IMG/VR virus record: IMGVR_UViG_3300022074_000005
Direction: 5' to 3' (one strand)
DNA from: a virus
DNA length: 64,000 nucleotides
Part shown: one piece after another, positions 26,772-52,898 of the stretch
How the letters are laid out: every line of letters begins with the position of its first letter
Position numbering within the stretch: position 1 is the first letter of the stretch
Notes under the pieces: model-generated
What the model saw: the letters and a program-made list of their open reading frames with translations, nothing else
What the model was told of the DNA's origin: nothing
Databases searched by the model: none
Position numbers and translations under genes: made by a program

Positions 26772-26792
26772 TATGACCTCTCTTTCATTATT

Positions 26793-27014: not shown

Positions 27015-27044
27015 ATTAACCTCTCTGTTAGTTGATTCTCTTTA

Positions 27045-40854: not shown

Positions 40855-41257
40855 CAAGTGTCCTCTGAAATTTGCCAGCATGAGACTTTTCTGCTTTTGC
40901 TAATGTTTCAAACCAATCTGCGATTTCATCAAAACCTTCGTCTCTAGCAGTTCTTGCCATGCCAGGATACATATCAGTATATTCGTGTGTCTCACCTTTT
41001 ATAGCTGATTGTAAGTTTTGTTTAGTTTCGCCCATAGGTTCACCAGTTGCTGGGTCACCTACTTCTTCTAGATATTCCATATGACCATGAGCATGACCTG
41101 TCTCTCCCTCTGCTGTGCTTCGGAATACTTGAGCCACATCTGGTGCTCCCTCTATATCTGCTTTTTGTGCAAAATAAAGATAACGTCTGTTTGCTTGACT
41201 TTCGCCTGAAAAGGCTTCTTTTAGATTTTCTGCTGTTTTACTGTCTTTTAGATTCAT
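40832..41257 (-). CDS. Rubrerythrin (short form, no rubredoxin domain)
   Basis: [35 protein letters not shown] and AEKSHA di-iron motifs. Confidence 0.92.
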
Positions 41258-41281
41258 AATATTCTCACTATTAATTAATTA

Positions 41282-41515
41282 AGTGCCTGTTTCTGTTGCT
41301 AGGTACAGGCAAACCCCGAAGAATTAAGCCGCTAGGCTGTATTCTCCATATGCAAAATTATTGTTTGCATCTATGGTTGTGAATCCTCAGCTAAGATACT
41401 CGTCAGTAGTCGAAACCTATTTCACCCCCTAAGTCGAGGTTATCTAGGTTTGGTGGAGGTGTAGGGTATCGCACCCTAGTCCTAACTGCATTTCTACAAA
41501 GCGTCACCGAACTCA
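41282..41515 (-). ncRNA. ssrA: Two-piece (circularly permuted) tmRNA
   Basis: Acceptor piece with T-arm UAGGG-UGCGAUA-CCCUA ending CACCUCCACCA (3' end 41451); 21 nt spacer; coding piece starting GGGGGUG (41429), giving a G3.U70 Ala stem; tag ANNNFAYGEYSLAA* at 41368-41324; outer boundaries approximate. Confidence 0.93.
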
Positions 41516-41519
41516 ATTT

Positions 41520-41550
41520 TATTTATACCACATTTGGGTTATAATGTCAA
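41520..41550 (-). promoter_or_regulatory. Overlapping sigma70 and late promoters for tmRNA
   Basis: TTGACA-17 bp-TATAAA with TG extension; the -10 is part of TATAAATA (41520-41527). Confidence 0.7.
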
Positions 41551-41973
41551 GAGCTTTCTTACATTTACAGATGTATTTTCAGGTAACTCACCTTCTAATA
41601 TCTGAAAACCTTGTCCTATTGCTAATACACATGCCATATTCCAATTAGGATGAAACTCAAAAATTGTAAACGTTTGAGTTGTAATATTTACAGCAGTAAA
41701 CACCCATACATAAATTTTAGAACCATCATCTTTCATCAATTGTCCTTGCCCCATAAATGCTCTATACTCGCCTTTTCTTTCTAGAACATCAATAAAGGCA
41801 TCGCCTTGTTGACATAGATGTGGTTTAGTTATCATAAATGGTCTTGTGTCTTCCAGCATACCTTCTGGTGACATTTTCATTTCTGGTTGTGTTGATTTTG
41901 TATCTGGTGTATTTGCTACTGCATTAACGCCAAAAACAAAAACCAAACTAAGTATTATTAGTAATTGTTTCAT
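41539..41973 (-). CDS. Secreted hypothetical protein
   Basis: N-terminal signal peptide and a Cys pair. Confidence 0.55.
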   Translation of the reverse strand: MKQLLIILSLVFVFGVNAVANTPDTKSTQPEMKMSPEGMLEDTRPFMITKPHLCQQGDAFIDVLERKGEYRAFMGQGQLMKDDGSKIYVWVFTAVNITTQTFTIFEFHPNWNMACVLAIGQGFQILEGELPENTSVNVRKLLTL

Positions 41974-46997: not shown

Positions 46998-47708
46998 TTA
47001 TTTTGATCTATATTTTTTGTTTAACATGTCAATCATAGTTGCGACAAAGTTAGCGTCATTTGAAAACTCTTTAAAAATTTCTAAATTTTTTGGAAAGCAT
47101 TTTCCACCATAACCATATTGTCCGTCTGGCCCTGGCACTTGAAAGTGTATATCTGCAGCCATTCTAGGGTCTTGTACTAAAGTTTTTTGTAGTTCATGAT
47201 AACCATCACCTGCAATGTCTTTTAAAACATTTGCAAACGTAACTTTCATTGTGTAAAAAGAGTTGGTTGCTACTTTCATTAAAGCTGCAATCTTTGGTTT
47301 AGTATGATAAAAGTTATCAAAGATTGTAATATCTTTTAATAATTTAAGTTGTTTAATACTTCCACCAAACACATTACAAATAGGATTCCTTGAATCTTCT
47401 AACCAAGTTCTTTCTGTTAGAAACTCTGGCCACACACCTGCTGACATAAATTCATCGCCAAGTATATTGTAATCTATTGTTGATCGTATAATAATGTCGT
47501 GATGCTTTTCTTGTGGTACTGAATCCAAATACTCTTTTACATTATCAGTAGGTGTACATATAAAAATAATATCTGCGTCTTGCCATGTTCCAATTAAATT
47601 TTTGTCTGGGTCATGTATAACAAATTCAACGTCATTCATAAAACCTTTTTTCAAAGTTCTTTGTGTTGCTTGTCCAACAGTTCCAAATCCTACTATGGCT
47701 AGTTTCAT
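46998..47708 (-). CDS. UDP-glucose/GDP-mannose dehydrogenase family, short form
   Basis: GFGTVG Rossmann, IRST, PEFL and GYGGKCFPK motifs; no C-terminal UDP-binding domain. Confidence 0.8.
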   Translation of the reverse strand: MKLAIVGFGTVGQATQRTLKKGFMNDVEFVIHDPDKNLIGTWQDADIIFICTPTDNVKEYLDSVPQEKHHDIIIRSTIDYNILGDEFMSAGVWPEFLTERTWLEDSRNPICNVFGGSIKQLKLLKDITIFDNFYHTKPKIAALMKVATNSFYTMKVTFANVLKDIAGDGYHELQKTLVQDPRMAADIHFQVPGPDGQYGYGGKCFPKNLEIFKEFSNDANFVATMIDMLNKKYRSK

Positions 47709-47986
47709 AAATCTTCCTTATCTACCAATTGATATCCACCCTTGTTGTAAGCAATCGTTACACACTTGCCTTCTGGCAAATCTAATTGTGGATATACTTT
47801 TTTCTTTGTTGGCCCAACTATTTTATCACTTGTAGGATAAGTTGATCTACAAGTTAAATCTGGCATTGGGTATCCGTCAAAATTGTTCCATATTTCACCT
47901 GTGTCTATATCTATGTTAACTCCAAGTGACTTAATATATTTGTAGTGATCTTTTAATTTCTTTTTTAATAATTCTTTTTTATTCAT
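47705..47986 (-). CDS. Conserved hypothetical phage protein
   Basis: C-terminal AYNKGGYQ motif. Confidence 0.55.
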   Translation of the reverse strand: MNKKELLKKKLKDHYKYIKSLGVNIDIDTGEIWNNFDGYPMPDLTCRSTYPTSDKIVGPTKKKVYPQLDLPEGKCVTIAYNKGGYQLVDKEDL

Positions 47987-47991
47987 AAATT

Positions 47992-48105
47992 AAAAATGGG
48001 GTGGATATGACTCCACCCCAAAGAGTACCCGATCAAATCTCTCATAATATATGGGTACTCTGACTCTTGCGTTGATGATGAGAGGTTGAGAGGTCGCAAG
48101 AGTCA
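47992..48105 (-). ncRNA. Putative structured small RNA: three tandem hairpins, the last an intrinsic terminator
   Basis: Perfect stems 48061-71/48095-105 (11 bp), 48022-30/48053-61 (9 bp) and 47997-48005/48012-20 (9 bp, then U5). Confidence 0.6.
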
Positions 48106-48114
48106 AACTCTAAA

Positions 48115-48285
48115 TTAGTTATATTGATTTTTAATAGTCATGATACCACTCAAAATCATAACTACGAAAGATGCACCTGCAAGTAAGTAATTTTCATTAC
48201 CCATACAAGCACCACCACAATCTTCGATACTTCCTACCGCAAACATTGCTGATAGACAAAATATTATTGCATATAAATGTTTCAT
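48115..48285 (-). CDS. 56 aa two-TM early peptide (MKHLYAIIFCLSAMFAVGSIEDCGGACMG...), not in the ORF track
   Basis: Translated by hand; AGAGAGGTT RBS. Confidence 0.65.
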   Translation of the reverse strand: MKHLYAIIFCLSAMFAVGSIEDCGGACMGNENYLLAGASFVVMILSGIMTIKNQYN

Positions 48286-48298
48286 ATTAACCTCTCTA

Positions 48299-48661
48299 TT
48301 ATTTTAAATATAAAGGACCTGTCCATTGAATATGGTAGTTTCCCTCTAATACATTTCCTCTGGCTGCATTTAAAGCAGGTTTGTTATAACCCGCAGCTTT
48401 AAAGATATCACCTTTTTTAAATCTATCATTATCGTGAATATTAACAAACGCAAATACAGAATTGTCTCTCACAATCTTGATATACTTTTGTCCAGCTTTT
48501 ACTTTGATCTTGTCATCCCAACCATCAACTTGTTCTTTTGAATAACCTGATAACTCTTTACCACCAACAGTTGACATCTTAATATAGTCTTCTTTGGCAC
48601 CGTTCATCATGTTATCAACACCTCTGAATAGTGTATCTGCTGTTTTTTCTACTTTGTACAT
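48299..48661 (-). CDS. Conserved early phage protein (start reassigned to MYKVEK)
   Basis: KYIKIV...SV.AFV...GDI.KAA....PA.N.ARGNV motif; AGAGAGGTT RBS. Confidence 0.7.
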   Translation of the reverse strand: MYKVEKTADTLFRGVDNMMNGAKEDYIKMSTVGGKELSGYSKEQVDGWDDKIKVKAGQKYIKIVRDNSVFAFVNIHDNDRFKKGDIFKAAGYNKPALNAARGNVLEGNYHIQWTGPLYLK

Positions 48662-48687
48662 ATTAACCTCTCTATTGTTTATTCTTA

Positions 48688-48716
48688 ATAATACCACATA
48701 TAGGGTATGTTGTCAA
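48688..48716 (-). promoter_or_regulatory. sigma70-type early promoter
   Basis: TTGACA-17 bp-TATTAT with TG extension. Confidence 0.75.
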
Positions 48717-51488: not shown

Positions 51489-51891
51489 AAATGTCTTTCA
51501 ATATTCTTTTTATTATTTTTATATCTAAGACATTATAATTTAAAGTGGTTGAATTGTCAAGGGTTGTATTCACCATAATTGCATTAATAAAATCTTGTAA
51601 AGGATGTGTATATCCTTTAGTTTTCATTATATAACTTTTTATTGTTTCATTGATAAAAGGAAGATATTTTTGAAAGTCTTTATCTGCGAGATCAACCTTA
51701 TTATCACTCAACGATTGTATCATCTTAACACATATCGCTTCTGTTAGTTCCTCGCCAAACACAAAGTCTGCTGCCATTTTCTCTTTTTTTGCCCAATCTG
51801 TAGAGGCATTAACTGCTCTCTTCTTCATAGTCTCTGTAAGAGTCCATGGTCCTTTTATGATGTTGGTTGATTTTTTAATATCCTCTTTCAT
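51475..51891 (-). CDS. Hypothetical protein
   Basis: NII.GPW and HPLQ motifs. Confidence 0.55.
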   Translation of the reverse strand: MKEDIKKSTNIIKGPWTLTETMKKRAVNASTDWAKKEKMAADFVFGEELTEAICVKMIQSLSDNKVDLADKDFQKYLPFINETIKSYIMKTKGYTHPLQDFINAIMVNTTLDNSTTLNYNVLDIKIIKRILKDIYGKK

Positions 51892-52192
51892 TGAATATTT
51901 TTTGTCTTTCTCTTTTCCACCTTTGAATACCTTGTTTTTTTCTTAGTCTTTTTTTCTCTGATGGCTTTTGGAAGTATTGTTTATCTTTGTACTCTTGCAA
52001 TATACCAGATTCTTTTACAATTCTTTTGAATCTTTTCATTGCCTTCATTAAGTCTTCTGGTTTATCACCACGTACTGTTACTTTTAATCCCTCATCTTTT
52101 GGAAACTTTTTAAACTCTTTTTTCTTAAAAGGTTTATTAAAATTATTAAAACTTTTAAATTGTCTTCGTGGTTTTGATTGTTCTTGTCTCAA
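51875..52192 (-). CDS. rpsU: Ribosomal protein bS21 with an N-terminal extension
   Basis: V.VR....L.KAMKRFKR.V..SGILQEYK..QYFQKPSEKKR; TTG start with AGGAGG RBS. Confidence 0.88.
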   Translation of the reverse strand: MRQEQSKPRRQFKSFNNFNKPFKKKEFKKFPKDEGLKVTVRGDKPEDLMKAMKRFKRIVKESGILQEYKDKQYFQKPSEKKRLRKKQGIQRWKRERQKIFNERGY

Positions 52193-52877: not shown

Positions 52878-52898
52878 AATAACCTCTCTTACTCCTAT

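Follow-up and report, generated by a model that had tools for sequence, protein, structure and literature searches.

Several described systems invite comparison with the RNA element analysed here. In bacteriophage T4 the early genes are shut off as a class, after transcription, by the RegB endoribonuclease and the RegA repressor, which act via ribosome-site sequence (GGAG in the case of RegB). Phage HK022 makes put antiterminator RNA, in which a pair of neighbouring hairpins, placed downstream of an early promoter, works in cis on RNA polymerase. The c4 antisense RNA of phages P1 and P7, reportedly described by Citron and Schuster in 1990, is said to be cut from the transcript of its own target and to turn downstream translation off through loops that pair near the ribosome site. 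Among cellular RNAs, the cuckoo/CcsR small RNAs (sRNAs) of alphaproteobacteria (RSs0680a-d, alpha-r14) consist of adjacent hairpins with variable stems and loops that resemble an anti-Shine–Dalgarno (anti-SD) sequence (PMC4615179; PMC8034643); the cuckoo family carries CCUCCUCCC in every hairpin loop (PMC4615179) and the CcsR subgroup is co-transcribed with a DUF1127 gene (PMC8034643). The C-rich-loop sRNAs of Firmicutes (RNAIII, RsaE/RoxS; UCCC loops) bind the ribosome sites of several mRNAs (PMC4615179), and in the icaR mRNA of Staphylococcus aureus a 3' untranslated region (3' UTR) motif, UCCCCUG, pairs with the Shine–Dalgarno sequence of the 5' UTR of the same mRNA (PMC3868564). The subject of the present analysis is an element of three hairpins at positions 48104–47992, on the minus strand, of a 64,000-nucleotide stretch of viral DNA (IMG/VR record IMGVR_UViG_3300022074_000005; the whole stretch is referred to as the window), which belongs to a T4-like marine myophage in the pelagimyophage group. 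The element lies in the 3' UTR of an early operon of two small open reading frames (ORFs), orfA and orfB; the loops of its first two hairpins are called loop 1 and loop 2, and the ribosome-site sequence complementary to loop 1 is called the tag.

The cuckoo/CcsR sRNAs are the closest family in form; membership fails on every defining feature tested except the hairpin layout. Members of that family have two to four hairpins side by side, and all variants of the phage RNA have two plus a terminator; common to both are variable stems, a conserved anti-SD-like loop rich in C and U, derivation from a 3' UTR and co-transcription behind a small protein gene, with a terminator at the end. It differs in its loop motif, which is ACCUCUC/AACCUC; the original prediction had held that the cuckoo motif is a different one, and CCUCCUCCC was found nowhere in the element. 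It differs further in that the motif stands in loop 1 only, loop 2 having a purine-rich complement that can mask loop 1; in that the upstream gene is not DUF1127 (orfA has a sub-threshold similarity to DUF7717 and orfB has no Pfam hit); in that no Rfam covariance model matches it; and in that it is phage-borne and apparently directed at early leaders of the phage itself. What is new is the phage setting and a second loop that masks the first. The RNA-binding partner of the CcsR 'cuckoo' RNAs belongs to the DUF1127 family; in phage Melnitz a DUF1127 protein is annotated among the small early genes (L153 721–939), and none was seen next to the hairpin RNA.

With icaR the phage element shares a C-rich motif in the 3' UTR that could pair with a ribosome site on its own transcript; the icaR pairing gives self-limiting translation, and that of the phage RNA is predicted. 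The phage motif is moreover set in a conserved hairpin loop with an internal competitor, and its tag also occurs on operons 20–27 kb away, which would need action in trans. The Firmicutes sRNAs likewise have hairpin loops with C-rich seeds directed at ribosome sites; they are unrelated in sequence, host range and genomic origin and have no kissing partner loop. The c4 RNA reportedly lies upstream of its target, in the immunity operon of a temperate phage, and serves one operon; it has no sequence or structural similarity to the present element. The parallel with RegB and RegA is a functional analogy only, since those are proteins and here an RNA loop would be the recognizing agent. The likeness to put RNA is loose (two abutting hairpins before a terminator) and was drawn by description only.

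A conserved RNA structure in the 3' UTR of an early operon

The operon is read in the order sigma70 promoter, orfA, orfB, RNA, terminator, with ~690 nt between promoter and terminator. Its features are as follows.

48688–48716, minus strand: sigma70-type early promoter, TTGACA-17-TATTAT with an upstream TG extension (11 of 12 consensus positions)
48665–48672, minus strand: ribosome site of orfA, GAGAGGUU, an exact complement of AACCUCUC in loop 1 (sequence match)
48299–48661, minus strand: orfA, 120-aa ORF with the conserved C-terminus WTGPLYL, directly linked to the RNA in all cases
48289–48296, minus strand: ribosome site of orfB, GAGAGGUU (sequence match)
48115–48285, minus strand: orfB, ORF for a predicted membrane protein of 56 aa with no Pfam hit
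48062–48104, minus strand: hairpin 1, perfect 10-bp stem GACUCUUGCG/CGCAAGAGUC (48104–48095/48071–48062)
48094–48072, minus strand: loop 1, 23 nt, ACCUCUCAACCUCUCAUCAUCAA, holding two ACCUCUC copies
48022–48061, minus strand: hairpin 2, perfect 9-bp stem AGAGUACCC/GGGUACUCU (48061–48053/48030–48022)
48052–48031, minus strand: loop 2, 22 nt, AUAUAUUAUGAGAGAUUUGAUC
47992–48020, minus strand: hairpin 3 with U5, the intrinsic terminator and 3' end of the RNA (terminator scan)
47705–47986, minus strand: downstream ORF of 93 aa, without a Shine–Dalgarno sequence or a promoter of its own (ORF and promoter scan)

The original prediction of an early promoter at 48688–48716, of three abutting perfect hairpins in the 3' UTR, the last of them a terminator with U5, and of a first loop with two ACCUCUC copies was borne out on the minus strand. 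The hairpins begin ten bases after the second stop codon. The copies in loop 1 were located at 48094–48088 (ACCUCUC) and 48087–48080 (AACCUCUC), and the terminator was resolved into a G+C-rich hairpin of 9 bp (six of them G–C; 48020–47997) followed by U5 at 47996–47992. The minimum free energy on folding was −46.9 kcal/mol (z = −6.1), with none of 200 shuffles equally stable, and hairpin 1, hairpin 2 and the terminator were predicted to form simultaneously in the window, in its relatives and in the more distant lineage described below. An Rfam search, which the original prediction had proposed, gave no family match for the element: at gathering scores the tmRNA alone was matched in the whole window, and at E values of up to 10 the region 47900–48250 returned noise only, with nothing relevant and no riboswitch.

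Relatives were first gathered among viral contigs by protein searches with orfA and the 93-aa ORF, and every contig found in this way that reached far enough carries the element. Loop-pattern scans then added metagenome contigs, giving 23 distinct versions that make up clade A. Looser loop-pattern scans of the collections yielded mostly chance hits, yet exposed a second lineage of nine contigs, clade B, in which all three hairpins are kept. The carriers are uncultured T4-like marine phages related to SAR11 phages. Conservation of the stems and of the CCUCUC loop, on which the original prediction depended, was found in both clades.

Stem 1 was paired in 98.7% of cells over the 23 clade A variants, with compensatory changes in five of its ten pairs; its covariation score was reached by none of 500 shuffles, and slid controls also came nowhere near it. 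Because a MAFFT alignment of hairpin 2 only was structurally inconsistent, stem 2 was judged sequence by sequence; it has at least seven consecutive pairs in all variants and is built from several sequences (AGUACCC, AGUAUCC, UACCCAC, CAUCCAC, AGGUCAC) with G–U intermediates. The G–U pairs were found solely on the minus strand, and since they would be A–C mismatches on the opposite strand, the transcribed minus strand is the one that forms the structure. Every variant has a third hairpin, rich in G+C, and in most a U-run follows it. This terminator arrangement is seen in nearly all relatives; the exceptions are L030, with a weak U-run, and L096, with none. In L096 the third hairpin itself holds a TTGACA-17-TATAAT promoter.

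In clade B stem 1 is GUUUGCGGUGC(A)/(U)GCACCGCAAAC, unrelated to the clade A stem; stem 2 is UAAGACAU, GAAACAU or GCUCAGGAAAC; the terminator differs too, and orfA is only 44–49% identical between the clades. The gene order of RNase H, DUF6433, promoter, orfA, RNA, terminator and SprT-like gene is shared. Loop 1 is nearly identical throughout, with the consensus ACCUCUC(UC)AACCUC(UC)AUCAUCAA in both clades. As it was kept while the stems, the terminator and orfA diverged, loop 1 is far more constrained than its surroundings. Its 3' part (CAUCAA) is invariant in clade A and is unpaired with the tag and, in most variants, with loop 2. On the evidence of this covariation and strand dependence, the element is a conserved, strand-specific RNA structure, and even if the account of its targets given below should fail it is a new, well-supported structured RNA family that is absent from Rfam.

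Immediately 5' of stem 1 the string RRUUUG is conserved. It is compatible with the RNase E preference RN↓WUU and may be a cleavage site of that enzyme, which we regard as a lead. No conserved internal promoter was detected within the element by a promoter scan of the window or in the relatives. At the foot of stem 1, UUUG does not vary in either clade. In clade B (L164/L377/L379) the string AGUUUGG occurs at the 5' ends of early leaders (AGUUUGGAAAUGAUGAGG) and also directly before stem 1, into which it runs (AAGUUUGGUUUGCGG), where it is possibly a processing site or a protein site.

Outside these clades, a blastn search with the element in 50,697 phage records yielded chance matches of 25–28 nt only, and the element was not found in HTVC008M, Mosig or Melnitz either with the covariance model (R1) or with the loop pattern at three mismatches. 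R1 gives clade B just 26–30 bits, so that more distant versions could escape detection. The neighbour gene of the element is also absent from HTVC008M, and in Mosig (L001 3057–3435) tRNA-Pro, tRNA-Arg and tRNA-Leu occupy the slot of the RNA, which there follows a small ORF and a homologue of orfA. Upstream of distant relatives of the 93-aa ORF (30–45% identity, L042–L093) there is no comparable element. The only hit in a bacterial genome, a Marinimicrobia metagenome-assembled genome, was rejected together with three metagenome hits as chance matches without a hairpin.

Complementarity of loop 1 to ribosome sites and to loop 2

The original prediction had ascribed a distinctive ribosome site to the early genes, and all of the copies that it listed are present: GAGAGGTT at 27018–25, 48289–96, 48665–72 and 52881–88, each 5 nt upstream of an ATG, and the shorter tags GAGAGGT (26776–82) and GAGAGG (20247–52) before two more ORFs. 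The four full copies at gene starts serve small ORFs, three of them directly after a sigma70-type promoter and the one at 48289–96 as the second ORF of the operon. GAGAGGTT occurs seven times in the window against 1.4 expected, a count reached by none of 100 shuffles; one of the seven is the complement of the loop itself and two lie off gene starts (1207, plus strand; 28216, minus strand). The candidate targets at a distance from the operon are the following.

52881–52888, minus strand: distant candidate target, GAGAGGUU ribosome site of a promoter-proximal small ORF (sequence match)
27018–27025, minus strand: distant candidate target, GAGAGGUU ribosome site of a promoter-proximal small ORF (sequence match)
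26776–26782, minus strand: distant candidate target, GAGAGGU(C), matching the first loop copy GACCUCUC (sequence match)

The late or core genes had been said to use mostly GGAG/AGGA; the remaining genes of the window were found to have mostly AGGAG/AAGGA-type sites or none. Because the complement of AGGAG/GGAG sites (CUCC) does not occur in loop 1, the loop could distinguish the two classes.

Each of the two operon ribosome sites is complementary to loop 1 over 8 nt (GAGAGGUU/AACCUCUC; 7–9 nt in relatives), and the identical string AAUAGAGAGGUUAAUAUG precedes orfA and orfB. Throughout clade A, GAGAGGU(U/C) stands at both operon ORFs wherever they are readable, even where the upstream leader differs, and the tag persists on contigs that have an unrelated 84-aa ORF in place of orfA. 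On average the operon ribosome sites match the complement of loop 1 over 6.9 contiguous nt, and 27 of the 33 do so over 7–9 nt; the mean over 225 other ORF starts from the same loci is 3.9 nt. The ribosome site of the clade B operon is AUGAUGAGG and its orfA leader, AGUUUGGAAAUGAUGAGGAAAAAUU-AUG, is unlike that of clade A; changed to AAUGAUGAGGAAAA, the leader is complementary over 9 nt to a different segment of loop 1, CCUCAUCAU; a similar leader stands on a second early ORF. By this match, clade B is a second, independent instance of loop–leader complementarity. The original prediction had proposed testing whether the loop co-varies with the early ribosome site; the clade B leader follows another loop segment, and within clade A, where loop and tag are both invariant, there is no co-variation. 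We estimate the chance probability of the matched bases beyond GAGG/CCUC at roughly 0.01 for clade A and 0.003 for clade B. In Mosig, which has an orfA homologue but no RNA, the early ORFs use AAGGA sites (AAAGGACAA), and no tag enrichment was found in HTVC008M, Mosig or Melnitz, all of which are without the RNA.

Loop 2 had been predicted to mimic the ribosome site and to act as an internal decoy, and its complementarity to loop 1 is indeed kept in every clade. In the window, AUGAGAG of loop 2 (48045–48039) is complementary to CUCUCAU of loop 1 (48084–48078) and UUGA (48036–48033) to UCAA (48089–48086); the loop–loop pairing amounts to −10.8 kcal/mol and is better than that of 99.6% of shuffled loop 2 sequences. 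Most of clade A has a continuous pairing of 10 bp (UCAACCUCAU with AUGAGGUUGA, −15 kcal/mol), and the other variants and clade B pair CUCAUCA or AUCAUCA with UGAUGAG or UGAUGAU. Across the clades the complementarity covers 6–10 nt in differing registers, and the actual loop 2 pairs more favourably than 95–100% of its own shuffles in nearly all variants. The GAGAG form of loop 2 was seen only alongside the UC insertion in loop 1. That complementarity is kept while the register moves supports a kissing contact between the loops, that is, an internal decoy. The first ACCUC of loop 1 is left free in most variants and is a possible toehold. A role of loop 2 in ribosome standby was considered and is not favoured, because in those variants whose loop 2 looks most like an SD sequence the downstream genes have Shine–Dalgarno sequences of their own. 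A 20-codon ORF that starts at the AUG of loop 2 (47984–48045, minus strand) and whose UGA overlaps the AUG of the 93-aa gene (AUGA) is probably fortuitous, as it is kept in the closest relatives only and ends after 3–4 codons in other variants.

Proposed mechanism and alternative explanations

The element is probably an RNA brake on early-gene translation. More specifically, we give even chances to its being an anti-ribosome-site RNA in the 3' UTR of the early transcript, equipped with an internal competitor loop. Loop 1 (ACCUCUC..AACCUC..AUCAUCAA) would pair with the ribosome sites of its own operon and of the other tagged, promoter-proximal early genes; binding of the 30S subunit would be blocked and translation lowered as the transcript accumulates, so that the outcome would be a delayed negative feedback on early genes. 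The RNA could act in cis, by contact of the 3' UTR with the two ribosome sites in the 5' part of its own message, and/or in trans after release, having been cut out of the mRNA, putatively near the conserved RRUUUG. Loop 2 would serve as an intramolecular look-alike of a ribosome site that kisses loop 1 and thereby sets a threshold or toehold for targets. Pairing of the loop with ribosome sites, translational repression and excision from the mRNA are all steps that we infer from the sequence. That this lineage uses RNA, rather than a protein of the RegB/RegA type, to shut off its tagged early genes, with the loop 2 mimic as a threshold or timer, is a tentative extension that we hold to be somewhat doubtful.

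Several observations weigh against the anti-ribosome-site account. The kissing interaction occupies part of the proposed seed in most variants. Loop and tag do not vary within clade A, which leaves no fine-scale co-variation; the contrast between clades A and B comprises two lineages only, and in L172, a variant of clade B, the complementarity is only 5 nt long. Any GAGG-type Shine–Dalgarno sequence is trivially complementary to CCUC, so that weight attaches only to the additional 3–5 nt, and an unconstrained hybridization-energy scan of the whole window ranked many G-rich coding stretches above the ribosome sites. Family members found with the pattern derived from loop 1 have an invariant loop by construction; the protein-anchored members, which are free of that selection, show the same loop 1. 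Finally, a tag-like site is present on ~5–7 of the ~17 sigma70-type leaders on the minus strand of the window. The original prediction of an RNA that shuts off early genes thus holds as regards a conserved RNA, a constrained loop 1 and complementarity to the operon ribosome sites in two clades, while 'early genes as a class' is too broad; the matches support a tagged subset, namely promoter-proximal small early ORFs including those of the operon itself.

An alternative that we rate as unlikely, though it accounts for much of the gene arrangement, is that the element is a cis-acting structured 3'-UTR or terminator module whose resemblance to ribosome sites is incidental. A compact fold of kissing hairpins would respond to a ligand or factor, or would influence RNA polymerase in the manner of the HK022 put RNAs, and so set readthrough into the promoter-less genes for the 93-aa ORF and the SprT-like protease, or it would stabilize the early mRNA. 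The element invariably stands right before the terminator, and no promoter follows until ~1.1 kb downstream. The 93-aa ORF starts 5 nt past the U-tract of the terminator and, being without both a Shine–Dalgarno sequence and a promoter of its own, would be reachable only by readthrough; the downstream gene set (the 93-aa ORF and/or the SprT-like protease gene) is conserved together with the RNA; and large invariant loops with a tertiary contact are typical of aptamers and self-contained folds. However, no pairing competes with the terminator: loop 1 matches the 5' arm of the terminator no better than do composition-matched shuffles, and hairpins 1 and 2 are predicted to coexist with it. For the attenuator that the original prediction had offered for the ORF at 47986, the position and the missing Shine–Dalgarno sequence of that ORF still speak, and an anti-terminator pairing beyond that expected from base composition was not found. 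There is no riboswitch or other Rfam match even at E values of up to 10, and an incidental resemblance leaves unexplained why the leaders changed between the clades and yet stayed complementary to loop 1.

It is also improbable, in our judgement, that the RNA works as a decoy or as a binding platform and not by antisense regulation, or that loop 1 is aimed at host RNAs. The loop 1–loop 2 helix would then imitate an SD–anti-SD duplex or a translation-initiation region, and the 30S subunit or a protein such as S1, the phage bS21 or a RegA-like repressor would be titrated or recruited. Loop 1 does resemble the C/U-rich 3' tail of 16S rRNA and loop 2 a ribosome site plus AUG; the CAUCAA end of loop 1, invariant in clade A without pairing to the tag or, in most variants, to loop 2, suggests another partner; and with bS21 and a tmRNA the phage already tampers with translation. 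Set against this, the kissing register shifts among variants, which fits the view that any masking will do better than that of a precise mimic, and orfA, the sole constantly linked gene, has no recognizable RNA-binding fold.

That the hairpins are plain terminators or insulators at an operon boundary, with loop contents due to chance, is highly improbable: T4-like phages often bracket early cassettes with promoters and stem–loops, and the hairpins overlap promoters in L096 and clade B, but the element is single-copy per genome window and its 23-nt loop has hardly changed, in contrast to the two stems, the adjacent protein and the terminator, all of which have been replaced; this is unexpected of an insulator.

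If the anti-ribosome-site account is true, the element would be an RNA counterpart of the protein-based early shut-off of T4, and it would also show that sRNAs whose seed masks itself occur in nature. The hosts of pelagimyophage-like viruses are among the most abundant marine bacteria and have very few protein regulators, and to our knowledge almost nothing is known about the timing of gene expression in these phages. A conserved, easily synthesized RNA of ~110 nt and a tag of 8–9 nt on short early leaders constitute a directly testable handle on that timing.

Neighbouring genes and other features of the window

Homologues of orfA lie upstream of the RNA in clades A and B. The similarity of orfA to DUF7717 is weak (E = 2.5e-4, below the cut-off), and against PHROGs families of unknown function only were matched. 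An AlphaFold model was obtained with a mean predicted local distance difference test score (pLDDT) of 78.5 and a predicted template-modelling score (pTM) of 0.75, and a Foldseek search of the PDB with this model gave no fold match at an E value of 0.001 or better, and so no recognizable RNA-binding fold. The orfB product has the motif AVG(A/S)IEDCGG.C.G.EN(W/Y) flanked by two hydrophobic segments, with no family match; orfB is present in most of clade A and absent from L096 and clade B. The TTGAC promoter is kept at the equivalent place in related contigs. In clade B (L164, L376, L377, L379–L381) the −35 box of an early promoter lies in the loop of a G5/C5 hairpin (GGGGGTTGACAAT.CCCCC), ~70 nt upstream of orfA, which by analogy with the promoter–stem-loop cassettes of T4-type phages may be a combined terminator–promoter unit.

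The window is distinct from HTVC008M, Mosig and Melnitz, and its genes include RNase H, 2OG-Fe(II) oxygenases, a phage bS21 and a permuted alpha-type transfer-messenger RNA (tmRNA). The last two were placed as follows.

41233–41554, minus strand: tmRNA, permuted (two-piece), alpha-type, with the tag peptide ANNNFAYGEYSLAA (Rfam, 87 bits; ARAGORN)
51878–52192, minus strand: phage ribosomal protein bS21 with an N-terminal extension of ~40 aa (Pfam S21, E = 9e-12)

Permuted tmRNAs are already known in Melnitz, Mosig and related marine myophages (PMC9004378). In the phage described here, bS21, the tmRNA and the hairpin RNA share one genome.

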